A DNA stretch of 64,000 nucleotides from Candidatus Poriferihabitaceae bacterium (GTDB lineage Bacteria > Pseudomonadota > Gammaproteobacteria > Arenicellales > Poriferihabitantaceae). The first letter of the stretch is position 1; each line of letters begins with the position of its first letter. Shown piece after piece: positions 2,433-58,802 of the stretch. The notes below the pieces were generated by a model. That model did no database searches. It saw only the letters and a program-made list of their open reading frames with translations, and was not told the DNA's origin. The stretch lies in NCBI GenBank assembly GCA_965237485.1, contig CBDEFQ010000005.1, forward strand, positions 430 to 64,429. Direction: 5' to 3'. Made by a program: the position numbers and the translations under genes.

Positions 2433-4129
2433 CCTAGAAAAATCAGTTGAACCTCCACTAACGGATGTATTATCGTTGCAATCAATTGAATTAAAAGGAG
2501 AAACACCATGGTCGCCAAAGATAAATCCTTTCACCCAGAGGGTGCGCTAAAACCGGAGGTTTCAAACGCTGTTTCCACCTTATTATCGACTGAAACGTTC
2601 GATGGAAAAATTCACGTTGAATGGGATCCGTCAGCGGCAGTAACGCCCATAGGACCGTTGCCTTTTTTCATTCAATATTTAAAACTTGGTGGTCTGTTTA
2701 AGCCATGGGTGAGCAGTTGCCCATTGGAATATCGAAGCAATAACGCACCTGAGAAGATCAATGTGTTGGGCTCATTTTTGTTGTCTGTTCTCTCGGGTCA
2801 CAATCGCTACGCACACATGGCCAGCTTAATGGGCGATCGTATCAACACCAAAATGCTTGGAATGATCAAAGCGGTTAGCGACGATTCGGCGCGCCGTGCG
2901 CTGAAGAAGATGGATGAGGAACAAGGTATAGCCTGGCTACAAACTCATTTGCAGCGTTGCTACGAGCCCTTGCTCACACAGCCATGGATATTGGATTGTG
3001 ACGTAACGGTTAAACCGCTATACGGTCATCAAGAAGGTGCCAAGGTTGGCTATAATCCACACAAACCTGGCCGGCCCTCGCACACGTATCACACCTATAT
3101 GATTGTCAATCTTCGTCTTGTATTGGATGTTGAGGTCAAGTCTGGCACTGAGGTAGCTGCTAGTCATTCTTCGCCGGGTCTATGGGAGCTGTTGGATCGA
3201 TTGCCACGTTCATCTTGGCCGCACTTTATTCGAGGCGATTGTGACTGGGGTACCCAGGATGTGATGAGCGCTGCAGAACAAAGAGGCGTCAATTACTTGT
3301 GGAAGTCTAAGTACGTTAAGCAACTGATACAGCAGCAGCATAGCGTGTCGGGCTGGGATTATGTTATCGATGGCTGGGAAGCCAAAGAAAGTTGTTTGAA
3401 GTTGGCTGCGTGGAACGATCATCGGCGCGTGGTAATCGTTCGTCGTCGTTTAGCAAAGGACGCGCTGCTGGTATTGGAAGAGAAAAGTCAAGGCCAGCAG
3501 AGCTTTGGTTTTTTGCAAGAAGCGGATGATATTCGCGCGTTTGAATACGCTGTTCTGGTCACCTCATTAGACGATGAGGTGATTAGCATCGTCCAACATT
3601 ATCGAGATCGAGCCGACTGCGAAAACAATTTTGATGAAATCAAGAACCATTGGGGTTGGGGCGGGTTTACTACCGCCGATATCAAGCCCTGTCGCTTTAT
3701 AGCGCGGATCATTGCCTTGATTTATAACGGGTGGAATATATTCACTAGGCTGGCTAACCCAGACAAACATATGGAAGCGATTACTAGTCGACCGCTATTA
3801 CTGAGTTCGGTGGGGCGCGTTACTGAATCGGGGCGGAAAAAGACTATGACGATTACTAGCACGCACGCCAAGGCCGACTTAATTCGCGACACGTTTGACC
3901 AAATACAACACGTCTTTAATTCATTGAAGGCGATTGCGCCGCAGTTGAGCGTGGCGCAAGTTTGGTGCCGCATTCTAAGCGAGGCGATGAAGAAATATCT
4001 TGGTGGAACGATTCTTCAACCGCCAGATGACCGCTGTTTACTTGGCTAAAGTGTCTCGGAGGCAGTAGCGACGATGGAAGGGTTGTTTATGTTGGCCTCA
4101 TTGGAGAGGCTTTAACTGCGTTTTTTAGG
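2433..4129 (+). mobile_element. IS1380-family element
   Basis: Imperfect IRs CCTAGAAAAATCAGTTGAA / TTTAACTGCGTTTTTTAGG; 5-bp DR TTTAA inside the ISNCY transposase. Confidence 0.85.
2508..4049 (+). CDS. IS1380-family transposase
   Basis: ILDCDVTVKPLYGHQEGAKVGYNPHKPGRPSH, IRGDCDWG and YRDRADCENNFDEIKN DDE motifs. Confidence 0.85.
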   Translation: MVAKDKSFHPEGALKPEVSNAVSTLLSTETFDGKIHVEWDPSAAVTPIGPLPFFIQYLKLGGLFKPWVSSCPLEYRSNNAPEKINVLGSFLLSVLSGHNRYAHMASLMGDRINTKMLGMIKAVSDDSARRALKKMDEEQGIAWLQTHLQRCYEPLLTQPWILDCDVTVKPLYGHQEGAKVGYNPHKPGRPSHTYHTYMIVNLRLVLDVEVKSGTEVAASHSSPGLWELLDRLPRSSWPHFIRGDCDWGTQDVMSAAEQRGVNYLWKSKYVKQLIQQQHSVSGWDYVIDGWEAKESCLKLAAWNDHRRVVIVRRRLAKDALLVLEEKSQGQQSFGFLQEADDIRAFEYAVLVTSLDDEVISIVQHYRDRADCENNFDEIKNHWGWGGFTTADIKPCRFIARIIALIYNGWNIFTRLANPDKHMEAITSRPLLLSSVGRVTESGRKKTMTITSTHAKADLIRDTFDQIQHVFNSLKAIAPQLSVAQVWCRILSEAMKKYLGGTILQPPDDRCLLG

Positions 4130-4164: not shown

Positions 4165-5340
4165 GGGCTCGTCGGTTAATACAATTTCAAACAGGGTTTT
4201 CGCCGAAGTCGCTTTTAGTTTGCTCAGCAACGCGTTTTTTGTGCAATAAACCGTCTATTGGCAGCCATTTTGCCACCAATAGACGGATCTATCCCTAGGC
4301 CGGCACCAATTCAACTCGTTCAACTCCCAATGCCATTAATCGCTTAAGGTTAAAACATAAGCCCCTGATTCCAACTTGGAACTGGACTTTAGCCAACCCT
4401 TTATAACGAACTCGCTTATTGCGATGAGCAAACACTCGCTCATATGGTGAACGAATTTTGCTAATCCAACGGTCTTTGTCTCTATTCTTGCCATGCATAT
4501 TGTTCTTCTTGATTGTTGCATCATGGCAACCGTTGCGCCTGAGCGTGGTTTTGGCCGGGCTCACGCAATAACCCTTGTCCGCATAAACAGCGCCCGACTT
4601 AGGGCAAACATGCTTCAAGCCGCTTGCATCCGTTACCTCAGCCGAGGTGGCCGCTATTTTATTGATCAAGCCACTTTGCATATCCACTGATGCATGCTCT
4701 TTGTAACCATACCAATATTTGCTATTTCCCTTGCACCCAAACCGTGCTTGCTTGTCCGCCGCAACTTTATCAACTGTCTTATTGTTGAACTCCTCTAATC
4801 CCATCTTTATCGCCTTATCTCTATCATCCCAAGTGGTTAGCTTACTGACCAACTGGCTGGCATCGACAAATGTGAATACTTCTCGTACTAAGCCCATTGA
4901 AACTAACCCGCTCCGAACACGGTCAAATAAATTCATCATACCCCTGGTTCCAATGCGTGAGCGAAAATCACCAAAGTAACTATGATCAGGAGTGCTCTGT
5001 TCCAGTCCTGAATCACAAAACCACTTAGCGGCCAGATTCTCTGATAAGTATCGCTCCATTTCTCTATCACTTAAATCTTCCATGAACTGAAGCACCAAGG
5101 CACGTAAGCCGAACTCAACACCTCGGCCTTTAGGGCCACGGGTGGCATATATTTTAGAGAAGGGTTTACTCAATGCACCAAAACATAATAGCTCATCGAG
5201 TTTACGGTAGGGATGTTCAGAGCTAACCAGAGAATCTAAGGTTAGGAACAGTTGGCTTTGATGACGTTTGCTCAAAATTGCAGGCTGACTAGAATCAGCC
5301 CATATTATCTCACGTATTCTATTAATTATCCGACAAGCCC
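4165..5340 (-). mobile_element. IS5-family element, copy 1 (1176 bp)
   Basis: IRs GGGCTCGTCGGTTAAT / ATTATCCGACAAGCCC; 5-bp DR TGTAT. Confidence 0.88.
4295..5275 (-). CDS. IS5-family transposase (probable TTG start)
   Basis: LSDREMERYL, TPDHS, FVDAS, YADKGY and RSPYERVF motifs; the ORF-track start lies outside the element. Confidence 0.82.
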   Translation of the reverse strand: MSKRHQSQLFLTLDSLVSSEHPYRKLDELLCFGALSKPFSKIYATRGPKGRGVEFGLRALVLQFMEDLSDREMERYLSENLAAKWFCDSGLEQSTPDHSYFGDFRSRIGTRGMMNLFDRVRSGLVSMGLVREVFTFVDASQLVSKLTTWDDRDKAIKMGLEEFNNKTVDKVAADKQARFGCKGNSKYWYGYKEHASVDMQSGLINKIAATSAEVTDASGLKHVCPKSGAVYADKGYCVSPAKTTLRRNGCHDATIKKNNMHGKNRDKDRWISKIRSPYERVFAHRNKRVRYKGLAKVQFQVGIRGLCFNLKRLMALGVERVELVPA

Positions 5341-5942
5341 TGTATCTACACGGATATAGCCAGGTGCGTATTTTTACAACCGTGGCCACCGAATTTTACG
5401 AAGCGTGGCCACTTGCACCAAGCCTTCAAACGGTCAAGTGATTTTAACGTAAAGTGGCTACACTTTGCTCTGTTGTGACTGGATTTTTCTCATCGATTCC
5501 CCCTCTAATTGTATTTTGTGCGCGTTGTGTAATAAGCGATCCAGAATCGCATCAGCCAAAGTGGCTTCACCAATCGCATCATGCCAATGTTGTGTGGGCA
5601 ATTGACTGGTGATTAAGGTGGCACCATTACCGTGGCGATCTTCTATTATTTCTAATCGGTCATTACGGTTTTGCTGAGTCAGTGTATCCAAGCCCCAGTC
5701 ATCGATAATCAATAGTTTGATTTTTGCTATTTGTGCCAGTAGCTTGGTGTAACTGCCATCACCATGGCTCAAGGTCATTGCTTCAAATAAGCGGCTAGCA
5801 CGAATATATTTTGTGCTAATGCCGTGCTCACAAGCCGCTTGTCCTAACACACAGGCCAAGAAGGTTTTGCCGGTGCCTGTAGGGCCTTGGATGATGACAT
5901 TGCGGCTTTTGTTTAGGGAATTATATACTTCAGTATGCAAAA

Positions 5943-10925: not shown

Positions 10926-12101
10926 GGGCTCGTCGGTTAATACAATTTCAAACAGGGTTTTCGCCGAAGTCGCTTTTAGTTTGCTCAGCAACGCGTTTTT
11001 TGTGCAATAAACCGTCTATTAGCAGCCATTTTGCCACCAATAGACGGATCTATCCCTAGGCCGGCACCAATTCAACTCGTTCAACTCCCAATGCCATTAA
11101 TCGCTTAAGGTTAAAACATAAGCCCCTGATTCCAACTTGGAACTGGACTTTAGCCAACCCTTTATAACGAACTCGCTTATTGCGATGAGCAAACACTCGC
11201 TCATATGGTGAACGAATTTTGCTAATCCAACGGTCTTTGTCTCTATTCTTGCCATGCATATTGTTCTTCTTGATTGTTGCATCATGGCAACCGTTGCGCC
11301 TGAGCGTGGTTTTGGCCGGGCTCACGCAATAACCCTTGTCCGCATAAACAGCACCCGACTTAGGGCAAACATGCTTCAAGCCGCTTGCATCCGTTACCTC
11401 AGCCGAGGTGGCCGCTATTTTATTGATCAAGCCACTTTGCATATCCACTGATGCATGCTCTTTGTAACCATACCAATATTTGCTATTTCCCTTGCACCCA
11501 AACCGTGCTTGCTTGTCCGCCGCAACTTTATCAACTGTCTTATTGTTGAACTCCTCTAATCCCATCTTTATCGCCTTATCTCTATCATCCCAAGTGGTTA
11601 GCTTACTGACCAACTGGCTGGCATCGACAAATGTGAATACTTCTCGTACTAAGCCCATTGAAACTAACCCGCTCCGAACACGGTCAAATAAATTCATCAT
11701 ACCCCTGGTTCCAATGCGTGAGCGAAAATCACCAAAGTAACTATGATCAGGAGTGCTCTGTTCTAGTCCTGAATCACAAAACCACTTAGCGGCCAGATTC
11801 TCTGATAAGTATCGCTCCATTTCTCTATCACTTAAATCTTCCATGAACTGAAGCACCAAGGCACGTAAGCCGAACTCAACACCTCGGCCTTTAGGGCCAC
11901 GGGTGGCATATATTTTAGAGAAGGGTTTACTCAATGCACCAAAACATAATAGCTCATCGAGTTTACGGTAGGGATGTTCAGAGCTAACCAGAGAATCTAA
12001 GGTTAGGAACAGTTGGCTTTGATGACGTTTGCTCAAAATTGCAGGCTGACTAGAATCAGCCCATATTATCTCACGTATTCTATTAATTATCCGACAAGCC
12101 C
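10926..12101 (-). mobile_element. IS5-family element, copy 2 (transposase ~11056-12036)
   Basis: Near-identical to 4165-5340; 5-bp DR AATTG in istA. Confidence 0.88.
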
Positions 12102-12891
12102 AATTGATAGGGAACCGAGTAATGATGTCCATCATAGCTAACGTGATAATCGATGTGCGCCCGTGCTTTTACTACATGGCGATAGCTATAAGGCGTGCCA
12201 GGCAATGATTTAAGAGCAGGCTTATCAATTGATTCAAACTGTGAGCGGCGAGAACCCGGGCGTTGTTTAAAGGGGCGATTGTTTAGATCATCTAGCAATC
12301 CTCGAATAGCTTGATTAGCCTCATCCAAACTAAACAATTGCAGCTTGCGCAGCCGCATCATGATCCAGCGTTCGACAATCTGTACGCCCACCTCGGCTTT
12401 AGATTTATCCTTAGGCTTATAAGGTCTGGCAGGCATCACCGCCACACCGTAATAGGCGGCTAATTGTGCATAGCTGGGGTTGAGTTCGGGGTCATAACGA
12501 CCGGCTTTAGAAACAGCACTCTTGAGGTTATCGGGCACCACTGTTTGAGTAACACCGCCATAAAATTCAAAGGCGCGAACGTGTGAGCCTATCCAGTCAG
12601 GCAAGCTCTGTGTCCATGTGGCCTCGGCGTAGGTATAGGAACTGACTCCGAGCACTGAAACGAATACTTGGGCAGGGCGTGCTTCACCCGTACGAGCATC
12701 AATAATACCTAAGGTTAAACCAGCATAATCAACAAACAGTTTATCTCCAGCAATATGAGTCTGGCGCATCGAGATTCTTTGCTTCTTGCGCCACTGACCG
12801 AACAACACCGTGAAGCGAGAATAGCTGTAATGGTTGACTGGATGATGCTCGGCGTATTCTTCCCACAGTAATTGGCGAGTCATCCCTTTAC

Positions 12892-13054
12892 CCTAGATAA
12901 ATCAGTTAAAACACGAAAGTCCATGCAAGCTCTTGATGCACCTGGCAAAATCAAAAAAAACCTTATCACCAATAAGGTGACCGCGACTTTTTTGATTTCA
13001 CTATGCACTTCAATTGCTTACATGTCTTTTCCGCGTTTAACTGATTTATCTAGG
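12892..13054. mobile_element. 163-bp MITE (subfamily A) in istA
   Basis: IR CCTAGATAAATCAGTTAAA; 5-bp DR TTTAC; no transposase. Confidence 0.9.
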
Positions 13055-13529
13055 TTTACGAGACAGTTCAACTGATATTTGTGCAAAGTCTGGCTCACAC
13101 AATAAAGCAGTGGCAGGGCCTCTGCATTTGGGCGGCTTTAATATCGCCTGCAGCTGTTGTTCATCCATGCCTGCTGGCAGGGGCCAGCTTAATTGGGCAT
13201 TTGTTGCTCTGACGAGATATTTGGATACGGCACTGCGTGACAGGTTTAAGCTGAGCGCGATTTTACGGGAGGATAGTTGCGCCTCATAGTGCAAGCGCAG
13301 AATGTCTTTGAGTTTTAACATAGTGACCTTCTTGGGTTTCATAGCTGTTCCAATACAAATAAAAGAACGGCAGGTTAACGGTTATAGTGTTAACCGCAAG
13401 AAGGCTGTGGAGGAATTTTACGGAAGCGAAAAAGTGTCCGCGCTTCGATAAAAATCAGTGGCCACGGTTGGTAAAATTAGGTGGCCTCGCTACGTAAAAT
13501 TAACTGGCCACGGTTGGTAAAAATATGCA

Positions 13530-14559: not shown

Positions 14560-15953
14560 GAGTTATGCCTGAAAGTGGTGTATGGAGTAGTTGACTAAAA
14601 GCGGCGTATCGGGATGAGTTGAGTTTACAACAACTTAAACTTCCACAGACATACGCCACTATGAAACAGAATAAAATTATTTCCTTTGAAAAGCCAGAGC
14701 AAAGCATCGATCCGCTGCAAGAATTGATTCGCAATGGCGCCAGGCAACTCATTCAAACCGCGGTCGAGAGTGAGTTATCTGAACTGCTGTATCGCAATTG
14801 TGACAAAGTCTCAGATTCAGGACACGCTGGTGTCGTTCGTAACGGCTATTTGCCAGAACGTGAACTGCAAACCGGGATCGGCCCAGTCAAAGTACGTATC
14901 CCCAAGGTGCGCTCCCGCACTGGAGTACCGATCACCTTTCGGTCTGCTTTAGTGCCGCCGTATGTGCGTAAAACGAGAACACTGGAAGCGGCCTTGCCTT
15001 GGCTGTATCTCAAGGGTGTCAGCACTGGAGAAATGGGGGATGCACTGAGCGTGCTAGTGGGTCAATCAGCGACTGGGTTATCATCAAGCACAGTGAGTAA
15101 GCTCAAAGCAACGTGGTCTCAGGAGTACAAGGATTGGAATAGAGAAGGTTTAGATCGAGATCGATGGGTTTATCTATGGGCGGACGGGATACACAGCGGC
15201 CTGCGCGGCGATGAGGGCCGGCTCTGTGCCTTAGTTGTCATCGGAGTGAATGAGCGCGGTCACAAGAAATTACTGGCGATTGAAGACGGTGAGCGAGAGT
15301 CTACGCAGAGTTGGCGAGAGGTGTTGTTGGCACTCAAGGAGCGAGGCCTGAATCAACCAGAGCTGGGCATCGGTGATGGTGCTTTAGGCTTTTGGAATGC
15401 CCTGGAAGAAGTCTATCCTGGCACTAAACATCAACGGTGCCGGGTGCATAAAACGGCCAACGTGCTGAACAAGCTGCCTAAATCGGTGCAGCCCAAAGCA
15501 AAAGCAGCTCTGCATAACATTTGGCAGGAAGAAACCAAAGAAGCGGCGCAAAGCACCTATCAATTATTCATTAAAACCTGTCAAGACAAGTATCCAAAAG
15601 CCACGCAGTGCTTGGAAAAAGATCGCGAAGAGTTAATGACGTTCTACTCGTTCCCTGCCAAGCACTGGATGAGCATACGTACTACGAATCCAATTGAATC
15701 AACATTCGCGACTATCCGACACCGTACCAAACGATGCAAGGGATGTCTTAGCCGTGATGGCATGTTAAGTATGATGTTCAAGCTGGGTCAGTGCGCAGAG
15801 AAAAAGTGGAACCGAATACGCGGGTTCGCCTATCTAGCAAAAGTGATTCAAGGGGTTCCATTTAAAGATGGAATAGAGCAAACTAATGACTACTCAGATC
15901 AAACCGAGGCCGCTTGAAGAAAATGCCTCATACACCAGATTCGGGCATAACTC
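14560..15953 (+). mobile_element. IS256-family element, copy 1 (1394 bp)
   Basis: IRs GAGTTATGCCTGAAAGTGGTGTATG / CATACACCAGATTCGGGCATAACTC; 9-bp DR CCACGACCG. Confidence 0.92.
14661..15917 (+). CDS. IS256-family transposase
   Basis: RNGYLPER, YLWADG, IGDGALGFW and IRTTNPIES motifs; QRCWVH changed to QRCRVH in this copy. Confidence 0.92.
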   Translation: MKQNKIISFEKPEQSIDPLQELIRNGARQLIQTAVESELSELLYRNCDKVSDSGHAGVVRNGYLPERELQTGIGPVKVRIPKVRSRTGVPITFRSALVPPYVRKTRTLEAALPWLYLKGVSTGEMGDALSVLVGQSATGLSSSTVSKLKATWSQEYKDWNREGLDRDRWVYLWADGIHSGLRGDEGRLCALVVIGVNERGHKKLLAIEDGERESTQSWREVLLALKERGLNQPELGIGDGALGFWNALEEVYPGTKHQRCRVHKTANVLNKLPKSVQPKAKAALHNIWQEETKEAAQSTYQLFIKTCQDKYPKATQCLEKDREELMTFYSFPAKHWMSIRTTNPIESTFATIRHRTKRCKGCLSRDGMLSMMFKLGQCAEKKWNRIRGFAYLAKVIQGVPFKDGIEQTNDYSDQTEAA

Positions 15954-23982: not shown

Positions 23983-25376
23983 GAGTTATGCCTGAAAGTG
24001 GTGTATGGAGTAGTTGACTAAAAGCGGCGTATCGGGATGAGTTGAGTTTACAACAACTTAAACTTCCACAGACATACGCCACTATGAAACAGAATAAAAT
24101 TATTTCCTTTGAAAAGCCAGAGCAAAGCATCGATCCGCTGCAAGAATTGATTCGCAATGGCGCCAGGCAACTCATTCAAACCGCGGTCGAGAGTGAGTTA
24201 TCTGAACTGCTGTATCGCAATTGTGACAAAGTCTCAGATTCAGGACACGCTGGTGTCGTTCGTAACGGCTATTTGCCAGAACGTGAACTGCAAACCGGGA
24301 TCGGCCCAGTCAAAGTACGTATCCCCAAGGTGCGCTCCCGCACTGGAGTACCGATCACCTTTCGGTCTGCTTTAGTGCCGCCGTATGTGCGTAAAACGAG
24401 AACACTGGAAGCGGCCTTGCCTTGGCTGTATCTCAAGGGTGTCAGCACTGGAGAAATGGGGGATGCACTGAGCGTGCTAGTGGGTCAATCAGCGACTGGG
24501 TTATCATCAAGCACAGTGAGTAAGCTCAAAGCAACGTGGTCTCAGGAGTACAAGGATTGGAATAGAGAAGGTTTAGATCGAGATCGATGGGTTTATCTAT
24601 GGGCGGACGGGATACACAGCGGCCTGCGCGGCGATGAGGGCCGACTCTGTGCCTTAGTTGTCATCGGAGTGAATGAGCGCGGTCACAAGAAATTACTGGC
24701 GATTGAAGACGGTGAGCGAGAGTCTACGCAGAGTTGGCGAGAGGTGTTGTTGGCACTCAAGGAGCGAGGCCTGAATCAACCAGAGCTGGGCATCGGTGAT
24801 GGTGCTTTAGGCTTTTGGAATGCCCTGGAAGAAGTCTATCCTGGCACTAAACATCAACGGTGTTGGGTGCATAAAACGGCCAACGTGCTGAACAAGCTGC
24901 CTAAATCGGTGCAGCCCAAAGCAAAAGCAGCTCTGCATAACATTTGGCAGGAAGAAACCAAAGAAGCGGCGCAAAGCGCCTATCAATTATTCATTAAAAC
25001 CTGTCAAGACAAGTATCCAAAAGCCACGCAGTGCTTGGAAAAAGATCGCGAAGAGTTAATGACGTTCTACTCGTTCCCTGCCAAGCACTGGATGAGCATA
25101 CGTACTACGAATCCAATTGAATCAACATTCGCGACTATCCGACACCGTACCAAACGATGCAAGGGATGTCTTAGCCGTGATGGCATGTTAAGTATGATGT
25201 TCAAGCTGGGTCAGTGCGCAGAGAAAAAGTGGAACCGAATACGCGGGTTCGCCTATCTAGCAAAAGTGATTCAAGGGGTTCCATTTAAAGATGGAATAGA
25301 GCAAACTAATGACTACTCAGATCAAACCGAGGCCGCTTGAAGAAAATGCCTCATACACCAGATTCGGGCATAACTC
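23983..25376 (+). mobile_element. IS256-family element, copy 2 (transposase 24084-25340)
   Basis: Same IRs and same DR CCACGACCG as copy 1. Confidence 0.92.
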
Positions 25377-41012: not shown

Positions 41013-42399
41013 TGTTACGAGTAAATTATCTGTCCTGATAATTAGCAAATAAACTGTCCGGATTTATCCTCCTCCCTTTTGGGAAGTGAGATGAGCCAGA
41101 TAGTATTTCTAAATAAGGTAAAACAGATGAGATTTGAAGAAGCGTATGAAGCTTATCAAGCTAAACGACTATCACCAGCGGATGCTGCCACAATACTGGG
41201 TGTTTGTGATCGAAGTTTTCGTAGGTACATTAATAAGTACGAAGAATCAGGATTGGATGGGCTGTTAGATCAGCGACTCAATCAGCCCTCACACAGGCGG
41301 GCACCCGTAGACGAAATGATCAAGCTACAAGACCTATACTCAACACGCTATCAAGGCTGGAATGTGCGCCACTTCCATACATGGTATCAACGCGAGCACC
41401 AAGGTAAGCGTAGCTACAGTTGGGTTAAGAATAAGCTACAAAGCGCAGACCTGGTGCGTAAATCTAAAACACGCGGCCCTCACCGCATTAAACGTCTACC
41501 TGGCGCCTTGCCAGGTAGGATGATTCACCAGGATGGCAGTACTCACCAATGGGTACCTGATGTGTCTTGGGACTTAATCGTCACCCTGGATGATGCCACC
41601 AATAAGCATTATTCCATGCGCTTTGTCGAAGAGGAAGGCACGCACAGCAGCTTGCTTGGGGTTAAAGATGTACTTAAGGTGAAGGGGCTATTCTGTTCGT
41701 TTTACTCTGACCGAGGCAGCCACTATTGGCATACGCCTGAGGCTGGCGGCAAGGTGGATAAGAATGGCCCAACTCAATTTGGGTTGGCGATGAAGAGATT
41801 AGGCATTGGCATGATAGCGGCTTATTCTCCTGAAGCCAGAGGCCGTTCCGAACGTGCGTTTGGCACACACCAAGGGCGATTACCGAACGAGCTTGCGTTG
41901 ATGGGTATCACTGGCATGCAAGCGGCTAATAAATACCTTAGAGATCATTATATGCCCAGACACAATAAAGAATTCAGTCATCCAGCTAGAGAGCAAGGCA
42001 GCGCCTTTGTGCCGCTTGCGGGCATCGATCTTGACGATTATCTATGCGAACAGTACGAGCGTGTGGTGGGTAAAGACAACAGCGTACAGTTTGAGACGCT
42101 GTCTCTGCAGCTACCTAAAGATCAACACCGCTATCATTACGTCAAAGCTAAAGTAAAAGTATCGCGCCACCTTGATGGCTCATTGTCGATTGATCATGGC
42201 CCAAGGCGATTAGGCCGATACACAGCCGATGGAATACTGGTGCAACAAAAACAGATTAAGAGCAAAGTTGCGTAACTGGGCTTCGCAATTTGCCGCCGAT
42301 GAATTCATTACGGGCTACGCCCTTCACTCATTCATCGGCAATAACTAAAGCGGACAGACTATGTGTTAATAATCCGGACAGTTCTATTTACTTCTAACA
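41013..42399 (+). mobile_element. IS1202-family (ISNCY/IS481-like) element, copy 1 (1387 bp; transposase ends 42275)
   Basis: TGT...ACA ends with repeated CTGTCC boxes; 16-bp DR TGATATAAGTGGTTAT; HQDGS, YSDRGS and ARGRSER motifs. Confidence 0.87.
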
Positions 42400-42536: not shown

Positions 42537-44612
42537 CCTAGATAAATCAGTTAAACGCGGAAAAGAGTAACTTCTCAATAACCCGTGGCAGGTAAAATAA
42601 AACAAAATATTTCTTGACAGGGTTTTACGCTAAAAGGAAGGTAATTCAACGTGGTCGAGTGACTCGATTTAGGTTGAGTTCCAGGGTGGTTGTAGGCCCC
42701 TTTACGCTAATAACAAAGATCGCTTAAGGACGTTCAGGGGTGTCTTCTTAACGTTCGTTGTGGCGCAGTTGAGAAGGCAAAATTGGACTTTCAAAACCGA
42801 TGGTACACTAAGGTCTATCCAGTTAACGGACGTTTAAGACCTTGAGTAAGCTACCCTCTATTCCCGACATTCCTGAACAAGAACAAACCCCCGCAGTAAA
42901 AATGTTGCGGGTGCTAGTGGAGCAGCTGTTGGTGCGAGTTCAACAACAGGACGAAGAAATAGCATTGCTTAAAGATGAAATCAATATCCTTAAGGGGCAG
43001 AAGAGGCGGCCTACTGTTAAGGGCGGTAATATGGATAAGAAAACAGAGCCAAAACGTTCATCTTCTAGCGACAAACCTAAGCAGCGAGCTGGGTCGAACA
43101 AGGCAAAGAAAACACCAAGGCTGTCAATTGACCTAAATCTGGTTATTGAACCAGCGAAGTCCGTGCCCGAAGGTTCTCGCTTTAAAGGCTATCGGGATTT
43201 TGTAGTGCAAGATTTGCTTATCAAGGTTCATACCACCCGCTATCGTTTAGCGCATTGGGTAACGCCAGACAATAAAAAGCTCAAAGGCCAGTTACCGACA
43301 TCCGTGGCAGGGCGACATTATGGGCCTCGTCTGGTCAGTTATATTCTCTATCAATATCATCATTGTCAAACCACGCAACCACTCTTGTTGGAACAGTTGC
43401 GAGAGTGGGGAATTGATATTTCTTCGGGACAAATTAACCCAATACTGATCCGCGCTAAAGAGCCCTTTCATGCTGAGAAAGAGGCGTTACTAAGCGTTGC
43501 TCTGAGCGCATCGTCTTACGTGACCGTGGACGATAGTGGTGCTCGCCATCAGGGCAAAAATGGCTATGTAACGCACATTGGTAATGACTTGTTTGCGTGG
43601 TTTAAAAGTACTCAATCAAAAAGTCGAATTAACTTCCTACCGCTATTAAGGGCTGGCAATACGGATTATCGTTTGAGTCAAAGTGCGTTGAATTATAGGC
43701 AACAACATGGATTGCCAAAGCAAGCCTTAGCCGCTGTAACTGAGCACCGGGAACGCCGTATTGCCAACGAGGATGACTGGCTTGAAATGCTCGATAGCCT
43801 GTTGATCATTAAGGCACGTCACCGACGTATCACCACCGAAGGGGCATTACTTGGTAGTATTTTGCATCATGGTCTGTGTGATGACATCGCTGTCGTCAGT
43901 GATGATGCAGGGCAATTTAACATTTTGGCTCATGCCTTGTGTTGGATGCACACCGAGCGCTTAATCCATAAGTTGATACCGCTGAACGAGGGACACCGGC
44001 AGGGCATTGCTAAAATACGCGACCAAGTCTGGTGCTTTTATCGGGCGTTAAAAGAGTATAAAACCCAGCCTTGCGAGAACCAACGTAAAATACTTGAGCA
44101 GCGTTTCGATGAAATCTTCACTCAACAGACATGCTACCAAACATTAAATCAGACGCTCAAACGAATCCATGCGAATAAAGCAGAATTACTGTTGGTGCTA
44201 GATCGACCAGATATTCCGTTACACACCAATGGCAGTGAAACAGACATTCGCGATTACGTGAAAAAACGAAAAGTGAGTGGCTCCACCCGCAGCGATGCTG
44301 GCCAGCAGTGTCGGGACACGTTTGCCAGTTTGAAAAAGACCTGCCGAAAACTGGATATATCGTTCTGGCACTACCTGACCCATCGACTTGGTATCGGTGA
44401 GCAACATATTGATCCTCTGCCAGATATCATTATGGAACGCGCCAGCTTTGCCACGGGTTATTGAGAAGTTACGGAAAAGACATGTAAGCAATTGAAGTGC
44501 ATAGTGAAATCAAAAAAGTCGCGGTCACCTTATCGGTGATAAGACCTTTTTGATTTTGCTAGGTGCATTAAGAGCTTGCATGGGCTTTCGTGTTTTAACT
44601 GATTTATCTAGG
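42537..44612. mobile_element. MITE subfamily A (162 bp when empty), split by an IS66-family element
   Basis: CCTAGATAAATCAGTTAAA IRs at 42537 and 44612; 5-bp DR TTCAA. Confidence 0.88.
42567..44472 (+). mobile_element. IS66-family single-ORF (ISBst12-like) element, copy 1 (transposase 42842-44464)
   Basis: Perfect 24-bp IR GTAACTTCTCAATAACCCGTGGCA; 8-bp DR GGAAAAGA; VDDSG, SDDAGQF and HTNGSETDIR motifs. Confidence 0.87.
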
Positions 44613-46495: not shown

Positions 46496-47392
46496 CTAAG
46501 CCGCTTGTTGATGAGTATGGATCCCGCATTCACGTTGTATGCCGAAAAAACGTGTTTCCTCTTCGAGCATTCCAGTGGTTAAAGGCATTGAGGTATGCGT
46601 GTCCCCAACGGAAACATACCCTCGTTCCCATAATCCTAGAAAACTCAGTTGAACGCAAAAAAGATGTGCAACTAATTGATATGAATAAGGAAGTCAGAAA
46701 ATACGAGGTCACCTTATTGGTGATGAGTGCTTTTCTGGGTTTCTTAGGCATATTAAAGAGTTGTGCAGACATTTGTGTTTCAACTGAGTTTTCTAGGATT
46801 ATGGGTGATACGGTAACTTGTGCTTTTTTAAATACCAATGTAACTCTTTGTTACTCCATTCAAGTATGGGTAGAACCTTATACCGACCACCCTGCTTTTC
46901 TAACGGTGACAGCCCTTGCCTTGATTTAGATTGCTGCGCACGCAGGCCTGAAAACCAAGTTTGAGCACCTGTTTCTTTCAAGGCACGTTGCATCGGTTCC
47001 ACCTTGGCAATTTGGTTATAGCGCTCTAGCCCTTCCTTACCCTCTAGCCAAAGTTTCCCGTATAAGTCTTCTATTTCAGTAGGGTTTAAACGTAGTTTAT
47101 AAATTTTGAGATTTAGTGATAAGTACTGTGTGAGCGACTCGATGAACTGGTGCGTTTCATCGAATAAGTACCCAGTATCAACACATATAACAGGCATATT
47201 CGGGTGAACACTCGTCACCATATGTAACATGACGGCACTCTGTATGCCAAAGCTAGAGCTGAGTACATGCGTTCTTGGCAGCTGGTCAATTGCCCACGCT
47301 ACCCGCTCTTGGGCGGGTACGTTTCTCAACTGCACATTGATCTCGTTAAAGTCTTGACCAGAATCAACTAACTGAGTTGCTGAATATTTCAT
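46496..47392 (-). pseudogene. cysH: PAPS reductase interrupted by a MITE
   Basis: SSSFGIQS, DTGY and LPYHP before the MITE; [11 protein letters not shown]...RECGIH after it; premature stop at the insertion. Confidence 0.9.
46635..46797. mobile_element. 163-bp MITE, diverged subfamily B
   Basis: IR CCTAGAAAACTCAGTTGAA; DR ATAAT/ATTAT; colinear with subfamily A. Confidence 0.88.
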
Positions 47393-47488: not shown

Positions 47489-48875
47489 TGTTACGAGTAA
47501 ATTATCTGTCCTGATAATTAGCAAATAAACTGTCCGGATTTATCCTCCTCCCTTTTGGTAAGTGAGATGAGCCAGATAGTATTTCTAAATAAGGTAAAAC
47601 AGATGAGATTTGAAGAAGCATATGAAGGTTATCAAGCTAAACGACTATCACAAGCGGATGCTGCCACAATACTGGGTGTTTGTGATCGAAGTTTTCGTAG
47701 GTACATTAATAAGTACGAAGAATCAGGATTGGATGGGCTGTTAGATCAGCGACTCAATCAGCCCTCACACAGGCGGGCACCCGTAGACGAAATGATCAAG
47801 CTACAAGACCTATACTCAACACGCTATCAAGGCTGGAATGTGCGCCACTTCCATACATGGTATCAACGCGAGCACCAAGGTAAGCGTAGCTACAGTTGGG
47901 TTAAGAATAAGCTACAAAGCGCAGACCTGGTGCGTAAATCTAAAACACGCGGCCCTCACCGCATTAAACGTCTACCTGGTGCCTTGCCAGGTATGATGAT
48001 TCACCAGGATGGCAGTACTCACCAATGGGTACCTGATGTGTCTTGGGACTTAATCGTCACCCTGGATGATGCCACCAATAAGCATTATTCCATGCGCTTT
48101 GTCGAAGAGGAAGGCACGCACAGCAGCTTGCTTGGGGTTAAAGATGTACTTAAGGTGAAGGGGCTATTCTGTTCGTTTTACTCTGACCGAGGCAGCCACT
48201 ATTGGCATACGCCTGAGGCTGGCGGCAAGGTGGATAAGAATGGCCCAACTCAATTTGGGTTGGCGATGAAGAGATTAGGCATTGGCATGATAGCGGCTTA
48301 TTCTCCTGAAGCCAGAGGCCGTTCCGAACGTGCGTTTGGCACACACCAAGGGCGATTACCGAACGAGCTTGCGTTGATGGGTATCACTGGCATGCAAGCG
48401 GCTAATAAATACCTTAGAGATCATTATATGCCCAGACACAATAAAGAATTCAGTCATCCAGCTAGAGAGCAAGGCAGCGCCTTTGTGCCGCTTGCGGGCA
48501 TCGATCTTGACGATTATCTATGCGAACAGTACGAGCGTGTGGTGGGTAAAGACAACAGCGTACAGTTTGAGACGCTGTCTCTGCAGCTACCTAAAGATCA
48601 ACACCGCTATCATTACGTCAAAGCTAAAGTAAAAGTATCGCGCCACCTTGATGGCTCATTGTCGATTGATCATGGCCCAAGGCGATTAGGCCGATACACA
48701 GCCGATGGAATACTGGTGCAACAAAAACAGATTAAGAGCAAAGTTGCGTAACTGGGCTTCGCAATTTGCCGCCGATGAATTCATTACGGGCTACGCCCTT
48801 CACTCATTCATCGGCAATAACTAAAGCGGACAGACTATGTGTTAATAATCCGGACAGTTCTATTTACTTCTAACA
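47489..48875 (+). mobile_element. IS1202-family element, copy 2 (transposase ends 48751)
   Basis: Near-identical to 41013-42399; 16-bp DR TAAAATAAACTAATGA. Confidence 0.87.
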
Positions 48876-56739: not shown

Positions 56740-58802
56740 GTAACTTCTCAATAACCCGTGGCAAAGCTGGCGCGTTCCATAATGATATCTGGCAGAGGAT
56801 CAATATGTTGCTCACCGATACCAAGTCGATGGGTCAGGTAGTGCCAGAACGATATATCCAGTTTTCGGCAGGTCTTTTTCAAACTGGCAAACGTGTCCCG
56901 ACACTGCTGGCCAGCATCGCTGCGGGTGGAGCCACTCACTTTTCGTTTTTTCACGTAATCGCGAATGTCTGTTTCACTGCCATTGGTGTGTAACGGAATA
57001 TCTGGTCGATCTAGCACCAACAGTAATTCTGCTTTATTCGCATGGATTCGTTTGAGCGTCTGATTTAACCTAGATAAATCAGTTAAAACACGAAAGTCCA
57101 TGCAAGCTCTTGATGCACCTAGCAAAATCAAAAAAAACCTTATCACCAATAAGGTGACCGCGACTTTTTTGATTTCACTATGCACTTCAATTGCTTACAT
57201 GTCTTTTCCGCGTTTAACTGATTTATCTAGGTTTAATGTTTGGTAGCATGTCTGTTGAGTGAAGATTTCATCGAAACGCTGCTCAAGTATTTTACGTTGG
57301 TTCTCGCAAGGCTGGGTTTTATACTCTTTAACGCCCGATAAAAGCACCAGACTTGGTCGCGTATTTTAGCCATGCCCTGCCGGTGTCCCTCGTTCAGCGG
57401 TATCAACTTATGGATTAAGCGCTCGGTGTGTATCCAACACAAGGCATGAGCCAAAATGTTAAATTGCCCTGCATCATCACTGACGACAACGATGTCATCA
57501 CACAGACCATGATGCAAAATACTACCAAGTAATGCCCCTTCGGTGGTGATACGTCGGTGACGTGCCTTAATGATCAACAGGCTATCGAGCATTTCAAGCC
57601 AGTCATCCTCGTTGGCAATACGGCGTTCCCGGTGCTCAGTTACAGCGGCTAAGGCTTGCTTTGGCAATCCATGTTGTTGCCTATAATTCAACGCACTTTG
57701 ACTCAAACGATAATCCGTATTGCCAGCCCTTAATAGCGGTAGGAAGTTAATTCGACTTTTTGATTGAGTACTTTTAAACCACGCAAACAAGTCATTGCCA
57801 ATGTGCGTTACATAGCCATTTTTGCCCTGATGGCGAGCACCACTATCGTCCACGGTCACGTAAGACGATGCGCTCAGAGCAACGCCTCTTTCTCAGCATG
57901 AAAGGGCTCTTTAGTGCTGATCAGTATTGGGTTAATTTGTCCCGAAGAAATATCAATTCCCCACTCTCGCAACTGTTCCAACAAGAGTGGTTGCGTGGTT
58001 TGACAATGATGATATTGATAGAGAATATAACTGACCAGACGAGGCCCATAATGTCGCCCTGCCACGGATGTCGGTAACTGGCCTTTGAGCTTTTTATTGT
58101 CTGGCGTTACCCAATGCGCTAAACGATAGCGGGTGGTATGAACCTTGATAAGCAAATCTTGCACTACAAAATCCCGATAGCCTTTAAAGCGAGAACCTTC
58201 GGGCACGGACTTCGCTGGTTCAATAACCCGATTTAGGTCAATTGACAGCCTTGGTGTTTTCTTTGCCTTGTTCGACCCAGCTCGCTGCTTAGGTTTGTCG
58301 CTAGAAGATGAACGTTTTGGCTCTGTTTTCTTATCCATATTACCGCCCTTAAAAGTAGGCCGCCTCTTCTGCCCCTTAAGGATATTGATTTCATCTTTAA
58401 GCAATGCTATTTCTTCGTCCTGTTGTTGAACTCGCACCAACAGCTGCTCCACTAGCACCCGCAACATTTTTACTGCGGGGGTTTGTTCTTGTTCAGGAAT
58501 GTCGGGAATAGAGGGTAGCTTACTCAAGGTCTTAAACGTCCGTTAACTGGATAGACCTTAGTGTACCATCGGTTTTGAAAGTCCAATTTTGCCTTCTCAA
58601 CTGCGCCACAACGAACGTTAAGAAGACACCCCTGAACGTCCTTAAGCGATCTTTGTTATTAGCGTAAAGGGGCCTACAACCACCCTGGAACTCAACCTAA
58701 ATCGAGTCACTCGACCACGTTGAATTACCTTCCTTTTATCGTAAAACCCTGTCAAGAAATATTTTGTTTTATTTTACCTGCCACGGGTTATTGAGAAGTT
58801 AC
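56740..58802 (-). mobile_element. IS66-family element, copy 2 (frameshifted, MITE inserted)
   Basis: Same 24-bp IRs; transposase in pieces 57874-58527, 57233-57859 and 56748-57068; flanks not duplicated. Confidence 0.88.
57069..57231. mobile_element. 163-bp MITE subfamily A in the IS66 transposase
   Basis: Near-identical to 12892-13054; 5-bp DR TTTAA. Confidence 0.9.

Follow-up and report, generated by a model that had tools for sequence, protein, structure and literature searches.

A 163-bp MITE family, very probably mobilised by an IS1380-type insertion sequence, with copies that can be read through in frame by host genes

The element at positions 12892..13054 of the 64,000-nucleotide stretch of DNA analysed here (the window) raises the question of what a short mobile repeat does to the genes that it enters when its length and the target duplication together amount to a whole number of codons. 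The first-pass annotation had reported four copies of this repeat, each framed by 5-bp AT-rich direct repeats, and had likened the family to the Rickettsia palindromic elements (RPEs). All four copies exist, as evident by a search of the window with a 20-nt end motif, which gives nine matches at no more than three mismatches versus zero expected. Eight of the nine matches mark the two ends of each of the four short elements, and the ninth is the left end of an IS at 2433. However, one copy is not the plain element that had been described, and only three of the four carry perfect duplications.

The copy at 12892..13054 (subfamily A, plus strand, 163 bp) has the TSD TTTAC (12887-12891, 13055-13059). 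Its host is an IS21-family transposase gene, which it enters antisense and out of register; the ORFs of this gene, at 12083-12883 and 13046-13342, match Pfam rve and Mu-transpos_C_2 and the NCBIfam IS21 model (E 2e-73), and the same insertion is found again in four copies of this host IS. A second subfamily A copy (42537..44612, minus strand, TSD TTCAA) ends at 44612 and is split into parts at 42537-42566 and 44473-44612 by a nested IS66-family element (42567..44472, plus strand, 1906 bp). The nested element has an 8-bp TSD, GGAAAAGA, terminal inverted repeats GTAACTTCTCAATAACCCGTGGC, and a transposase ORF at 42842-44464 that matches Pfam DDE_Tnp_IS66 and the NCBIfam IS66 model (E 1e-31).

Subfamily B is represented by the copy at 46635..46797 (plus strand, 163 bp), whose flanks ATAAT and ATTAT are identical at four of five positions only. 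Its host is the 3′ part of cysH (PAPS reductase), identified by PF01507 on 46799-47392, in which it lies antisense in phase 2. Several stops break this gene, yet its frame is restored after 168 bp (LPYHP, stop, S, stop, K, and later ECGIH). Within the cysH region (46504-47392, minus strand), a base change in the upstream copy of the duplication places a TAA just before the B element, and the same change makes the eight bases on each side of the copy inverted complements. The remaining subfamily A copy (57069..57231, plus strand, 163 bp, TSD TTTAA) is antisense and in phase 0 in an IS66-family transposase gene, and its insertion is found again in 11 copies of that host IS. As had been noted at first reading, the host frame both enters and rejoins in register here (QTLN followed by LDKSVKRGKDM and a stop, then TDLSR followed by LNQTLKR), and the sole break is a single TAA. 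The net insertion is 168 bp (163 + 5) for the copies at 12892, 46635 and 57069, also in agreement with the annotation.

Other features of the window were recorded as well. It carries transposase genes of at least six kinds, several in duplicate, including those of the IS21-type, IS66-type and IS1380-type ISs; there are IS5/DUF772-type genes at 4295-5389 and 11056-12135, Mutator/IS256-type genes at 14619-15917 and 24042-25340, and HTH-type 398-aa ORFs at 41079-42275 and 47555-48751. An Rfam scan of the window matched zero families. In a promoter and terminator scan over the 57069 copy, nothing resembled a promoter, and the minus strand gave a single weak terminator-like hairpin, which is within the expectation from shuffled sequence.

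A BLAST census of the whole genome yields 135 loci. Full-length copies account for 115 of them (99 A, 16 B); the other 20 are fragments, among them several half-elements produced where another IS has split a copy. After extension to full ends, 92 of the 115 copies are 163 bp long, with 19 copies of 162 bp, three of 164 bp and one of 161 bp. The lengths therefore do not vary freely, which the annotation had named as an outcome that would speak against its proposal. Perfect 5-bp AT-rich TSDs flank 96 of the 115; the commonest are TTTAA, TTAAA, ATAAT, TTAAT and ATTAT, corresponding to a target of the type WTNAW. The copies are 98-100% identical to one another and thus reflect a recent burst. Many share flanks because they are carried inside other ISs that have 20-90 copies each, and clustering by flanks leaves approximately 68 independent sites. 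Several IS families in this genome reach 20-90 copies each. We also considered whether the element prefers to nest in other mobile elements, and this was ruled out: both flanks are repeated at 19 of the 68 sites (p=0.6), compared with a genome in which 25-mers occurring at least three times make up about 29%.

The element has inverted repeats of approximately 20 bp at its ends, and its entire length is an imperfect palindrome that folds as one long imperfect hairpin (RNA fold of −60 kcal/mol, z = −11). It has no capacity to encode a transposase, and its only open register specifies a 54-residue peptide from end to end. With its short length, lack of a transposase, terminal inverted repeats, TSDs, multiple copies and empty sites in relatives, the element is certainly a MITE.

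A candidate for the autonomous parent resides in the same window. This putative parent IS (2433..4129, plus strand, 1697 bp, TSD TTTAA) has the left end CCTAGAAAAATCAGTTGAAC and the right end CCTAAAAAACGCAGTTAAAG, which begin CCTAG and CCTAA, and it contains a single transposase ORF at 2508-4049 (513 aa). The product matches Pfam DDE_Tnp_1_4 (PF13701) with E 1e-18 and 67 bits, versus a cut-off of 34.7. Its best NCBIfam model is that of the IS1380 family (NF033539, E 9e-36), which is matched over positions 47-417 of 419 with 123 bits; this score is below NCBI's 180-bit cut-off, and the parent IS is therefore probably a distant member of the family. IS1380-family elements are typically single-ORF ISs of about 1.6-2 kb with ends starting CC and duplications of 4-5 bp, and the parent IS fits this description in its size, its single ORF, its CC-starting ends and its 5-bp duplication (TTTAA). 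The genome holds 20 full-length copies of the parent IS, and the flanks of all of them are AT-rich WTNAW sequences of the same type as the MITE TSDs. The flanks match each other in only five of the 20 copies, which suggests frequent recombination between copies.

The ends of the MITE are identical to the left end of the parent IS at 17-19 of 20 positions (19 for B, 17-18 for A), such that the annotated match to the IS at 2433 holds for both subfamilies. A comparable pairing occurs in a second genome, G063, where a 57%-identical transposase lies within a 1691-bp IS (TSD ATCAA) whose ends have the form CCTAnAnnnnnCAGTTAnA and resemble that genome's own MITEs. For four of the five other MITE-bearing genomes, no homolog of the parent transposase was found at E ≤ 1e-10; three of these four are MAGs. 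IS copies are often left unassembled in MAGs. From the agreement in ends and in 5-bp AT-rich target with a co-resident IS that encodes an IS1380-type transposase, we conclude that the MITE is very probably a passenger of an IS1380-type IS, much as its annotated IS1380-type ends had implied. ISEcp1 is known for CCTAG ends and 5-bp duplications. The parent IS resembles such elements in a transposase that matches the family model over nearly its full length, in a size of about 1.7 kb with a single ORF, in ends that begin CCTA and in duplicating 5 bp of target, but by its score it is probably a distant member, as described above. Passages of the papers on ISEcp1 and IS1380 place ISEcp1 in the IS1380 family. 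Our literature search retrieved no paper on any MITE derived from the IS1380 family.

Which reading registers of the MITE could a host ribosome pass through? No stop interrupts register +1 in A(+), B(+) or B(−); in A(−) a single TAA does so, at a codon that is CAA in B. These stop counts agree with those given by the first-pass annotation. The single TAA of A(−), at codon 12 of register −1, is also in the family consensus. The other two registers, 0 and 2, run into TAG and TAA in the terminal repeats. When the interior is shuffled, register +1 stays open with a probability of 0.15 in A, and B is open in both orientations with a probability of 0.009-0.02.

Consistent with this architecture, four single-copy ORFs read through a sense, phase-0 copy and remain unbroken with 56 extra codons. 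These encode a YdjM-like membrane protein (397 aa) that is otherwise full length, an acyltransferase (400 aa, G000:C10:326277-327476), an AraC/GyrI-like regulator (348 aa) with the insert about 12 residues short of the C-terminus, and a 190-aa protein. In sister species, the orthologs of the YdjM-like, acyltransferase and 190-aa proteins run on across the site, and what they lack there is precisely the inserted block. The AraC/GyrI-like gene has no ortholog among eight sister genomes at E ≤ 1e-33, and hence no empty site is shown for it. Intact genes with in-frame copies, whose absence would have told against the annotated idea, are thus present in four single-copy cases, three of them with empty orthologs. 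The acyltransferase ORF also lacks about 110 C-terminal residues that are present in its orthologs; this indicates that a second event truncated the gene, which may therefore be dead in any case.

Contigs from other samples bear on the YdjM-like site. Those from two samples (X1 and X3, from two studies) run approximately 24 bases into the MITE from both sides. Contigs from four public runs break inside the MITE repeat; no contig among them spans the element or joins the two flanks as an empty site would. The public runs listed as containing the sequence include no RNA run. The YdjM-like protein was also modelled, insert included, with AlphaFold; the model, based on a five-sequence alignment, has a mean pLDDT of 48 and is too poor to place the insert, and within it the insert itself has pLDDT values of 27-42.

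Two IS transposase genes likewise read through in-frame MITE copies. One is an IS66-like transposase gene (G000:C4:615259-616785) in which an in-frame B copy leaves a 509-aa open frame. This B insertion is present in six of about 35 copies of the IS66-like element, which indicates that the carrier IS either still transposes or is moved in trans.

The annotation had proposed that insertions into intact genes be examined for a bias of frame and orientation, and none is clear. If insertions simply followed the phases in which the used target 5-mers occur in long ORFs, a share of 0.21 would be sense and phase 0. For subfamily A sites in single-copy genes, most of whose 13 host ORFs are confirmed by Pfam, the observed share is 5/13 (p=0.11); leaving aside the two hosts that lack Pfam support gives 5/11 (p ~0.06, hand calculation). 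One of these five sites holds a 162-bp copy near the end of cas1, where the frame is not kept. Only one of 16 IS-hosted A sites is sense phase 0, and this proportion differs from that of single-copy sites with a Fisher p=0.047. Taken over all genic A sites, 6/29 are sense phase 0, equal to the expectation of 0.21. Any survivorship signal inside the genome is thus weak.

We used 29 representatives that are less than 88% identical (mean pairwise identity 68%) to look for selection on the register; these sequences are related and not phylogenetically independent, and the p-values obtained from them therefore overstate the evidence. Variability at the three codon positions is 1.01, 0.86 and 0.96 bits (p=0.40). 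This lack of periodicity indicates that the MITE peptide is not constrained as a protein, and a role for the peptide as a functional module was rejected on these grounds. Stops are rarer in register +1 than independent columns predict (15 observed vs 22 expected, p=0.013). For changes from the consensus that create stops, the ratio of observed to expected is 0.56 in +1 (p=0.002) and 0.71 in −1 (not significant), compared with 0.99-1.42 in the four control frames. When each variant is counted once, the odds ratio is 0.36 for +1 (p=0.04) and 0.29 for −1 (p=0.053), and the four control frames are not significant. Bases that could create a stop occur 24 times and yield real stops only eight times, the codon context usually being different. 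From these sequence comparisons, the modest deficit of stops in both registers that join the duplication in frame suggests, on mixed evidence, that translatability is maintained by survivorship.

The family extends well beyond this genome. A profile of the +1 peptide, searched against 1.84 billion protein representatives at E ≤ 1e-3, matched 231 protein clusters, mostly ORFs of 60-180 aa. Among the 150 clusters listed, 91 have the full 54 residues together with flanks encoded by a phase-0 duplication (FN, LN, II, IN). Dozens of the short database ‘proteins’ consist of a MITE and its flanks only. The public metagenome protein P0001 (145 aa) carries two tandem copies of the peptide, implying that two adjacent elements are read through in one frame. 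Scanning 14 long matches revealed three internal insertions, in an IS110 transposase, a GNAT protein and an epimerase, and three more matches that are N-terminal fusions or extensions; the search of unrelated proteins that the annotation had recommended thus does recover the peptide inside them. The peptides diverge to about 35-45% identity and have no conserved residues outside the ends and the centre.

A search that is blind to reading frame gives a complementary view. The DNA pattern CCTAG, 60-78 nt, the exact 15-nt centre, 60-78 nt and CTAGG finds at least 80 loci in at least 43 assemblies from several phyla; those listed come from Gamma- and Zetaproteobacteria, Magnetococcales, Delta/Desulfuromonadales and Gemmatimonadales MAGs and from one Paraglaciecola isolate. 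Of the 80 loci listed, 54 are 163 bp long, 22 are 162 bp, two are 161 bp and two are 164 bp, and 52 have arms of 74+74, giving a 74+15+74 architecture. Eleven of the listed 162-bp copies reside in a single outside assembly. Perfect TSDs flank 53 of 78 listed outside loci. Register +1 is open in 33 and register −1 in seven of the 54 listed outside elements of 163 bp. The mean number of stops per frame among the outside loci listed is 4.1, 0.9 (+1) and 4.3 on the plus strand and 3.4, 1.9 (−1) and 6.0 on the minus strand. Only three of 76 listed outside loci look intragenic, and read-through of a host gene is seen in none of these 76. Sister species have one or two MITE copies each, of 162, 162 and 164 bp, all with stops. 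With 162-bp lineages thriving, phase use at the level of chance and locations that are almost always intergenic among the loci listed elsewhere, frame preservation is neither required nor strong.

A strongly conserved part of the family is its 15-nt centre, TCACCAATAAGGTGA, a 5-bp stem with an AATAA loop that can be seen, for example, at 57143-57157 of the window. At no more than one mismatch it occurs 116 times genome-wide, every time inside a MITE, and it is absent from the partner IS. Diverged relatives of the MITE in sister species keep this centre nearly unchanged; in the outside sample the exact centre was required by design, and its conservation there is thus partly circular. The invariant LITNKVT of register +1 is the translation of this DNA, and the opposite orientation reads VTLLV. 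The centre is equally conserved in both orientations, indicating that the constraint is on DNA and not on protein. It might be a recognition site. Tentatively, we can picture a cross-phylum superfamily with 74+15+74 architecture and CCTAG ends, in which the invariant TCACCAATAAGGTGA loop would serve as the recognition site for mobilisation and in which selection would have favoured translatability, in both orientations, of the one register that joins the 5-bp duplication in frame.

Taken together, we consider it rather probable that this family is a hairpin MITE mobilised by an IS1380-type IS, that its stop-free register has been kept by survivorship, and that the inserted 54-residue peptide has no selected function of its own. 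By this mechanism, the 163-bp non-autonomous hairpin would most likely be moved in trans by the transposase of the 1697-bp IS, and with its duplication it would add 168 bp, or 56 codons, with a stop-free register +1. A sense hit whose target starts a codon then leaves the ORF unbroken and 56 residues longer, because both the length and the register permit it. Judging from the target motif, this outcome would be expected in about one-fifth of genic hits, and the other registers would break the gene. Hosts would purge disruptive copies, such that lineages with stop-free master copies may leave more survivors. An alternative that we take to be possible, if on the unlikely side, is that the element is an ordinary MITE whose stop-free register is an ancestral accident under the DNA-level constraints of terminal repeats, hairpin and centre, and that the unbroken genes are just the one in five genic hits expected by chance in a genome that is rich in repeats and under relaxed selection. 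This account is consistent with the 6/29 sense phase-0 sites at the expected 0.21, with the chance of 0.15 that a single sequence is open in +1, and with variability that shows no codon periodicity. Position-specific composition already predicts few +1 stops (22 expected against 15 observed in the 29 sequences), 162-bp subfamilies that break the frame proliferate (23 of 115 copies here and 26 of the 80 listed outside are not 163 bp), the genome is 29% repeats with MITE sites in repeats in proportion (19/68, p=0.6), and the outside loci listed are almost all intergenic. However, an accident does not readily explain why stop-creating variants are scarce in +1 and −1 only and not in the four control frames, why just eight real stops arise from 24 occurrences of stop-creating bases, or why 33 of the 54 listed 163-bp elements are still open in +1 among lineages that average 68% pairwise identity. 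The greater frequency of phase-0 sense sites in single-copy genes than in IS hosts (Fisher p=0.047) also counts against an accident.

Two further explanations concern the peptide and the mover. The 54-residue peptide could be a selected protein module, for example one that spans a membrane or is exposed at the surface, a role once proposed for RPEs. Such a role fits a peptide that is hydrophilic in one half and then turns hydrophobic, that has a LITNKVT core invariant across the family, and that is present inside real proteins. We nevertheless regard it as very improbable, since third codon positions have no excess variability, LITNKVT merely translates a 15-nt centre that is conserved equally when read as VTLLV, peptides diverge to about 35-45% identity with nothing conserved beyond ends and centre, and AlphaFold gives the insert a pLDDT of 27-42 in a model that is poor overall. 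It is also improbable, to a somewhat lesser degree, that the mover is something other than an IS1380-type transposase, with the shared ends being convergent or ancient and the centre being read on the hairpin by another enzyme or a host factor. Such a mover would account for a TCACCAATAAGGTGA centre that is found 116 times in MITEs and never in the IS, for its conservation across phyla and for the four of five other MITE-bearing genomes with no detectable transposase homolog. But the outside sample required the exact centre, making that conservation partly circular, and three of the four genomes are MAGs, in which IS copies often go unassembled. The ends that agree at 17-19 of 20 positions, the identical duplication length and target type of MITE and IS, and the recurrence of the pairing in G063 argue instead for mobilisation by the IS1380-type partner.

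The family joins a short list of bacterial elements able to sit in genes as in-frame peptides. It is very widespread, being present in Gamma- and Zetaproteobacteria, Magnetococcales and other MAG lineages. With a clear partner IS, a strict length, two registers with a measurable deficit of stops and natural pairs of filled and empty genes, it is well suited to studying whether selection acts on selfish DNA to keep it translatable. If such selection has indeed shaped the family, genic hits would be survivable, and a ‘read-through’ strategy of selfish DNA may be general well beyond Rickettsia. There are practical consequences as well: public protein sets contain hundreds of short ‘proteins’ and N-terminal extensions that are artefacts of the MITE, and assemblies break at its copies.

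In-frame insertion by MITEs is itself already known from RPEs, ERIC and QMITE1, and the present family is apparently undescribed, as evident by a literature search that found no paper on it. Intragenic ERIC, QMITE1 and other ORF-carrying MITEs were reportedly treated by Delihas in 2007 and by Wachter et al. in 2018. In the relevant passages of a 2024 review (PMC10969869), in-frame MITE fusions are called ‘not unusual’, RPEs are the extreme case, and intragenic ERIC elements and QMITE1 of Coxiella burnetii are given as MITEs with ORFs that fuse in frame. The family described here is like ERIC and QMITE1, as those passages portray them, in having open frames that at times fuse in frame with those of hosts. 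It differs from them in sequence family, parent IS and hosts, and the fixed 74+15+74 architecture over several phyla belongs to the present MITE.

The closest comparison is with RPEs, and it rests on their description, as no sequence relation to the MITE is expected. RPEs are summarised in the same review as mobile palindromic repeats of about 150 bp that place peptides in frame within genes (Ogata et al., 2000, via PMC10969869). By that summary, the great majority of genic RPE insertions keep the frame and the RPE peptide is conserved, whereas the MITE is sense phase 0 in 6/29 genic sites, which is chance, and its peptide is under no protein-level constraint. Most MITE copies outside this genome are intergenic among the loci listed, and, unlike RPEs as the review presents them, the MITE is flanked by TSDs and can be paired with a clear autonomous IS. 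Therefore, of the analogy drawn in the first-pass annotation, the capacity for in-frame insertion stands, as evident by the four genes, but an excess of in-frame insertions is absent (6/29 vs 0.21). What the two families share, on the review's account, is that both are palindromic mobile repeats of about 150 bp with a stop-free register, and that both occur in the coding sequences of unrelated genes, where they add a peptide in frame and the ORF stays open.
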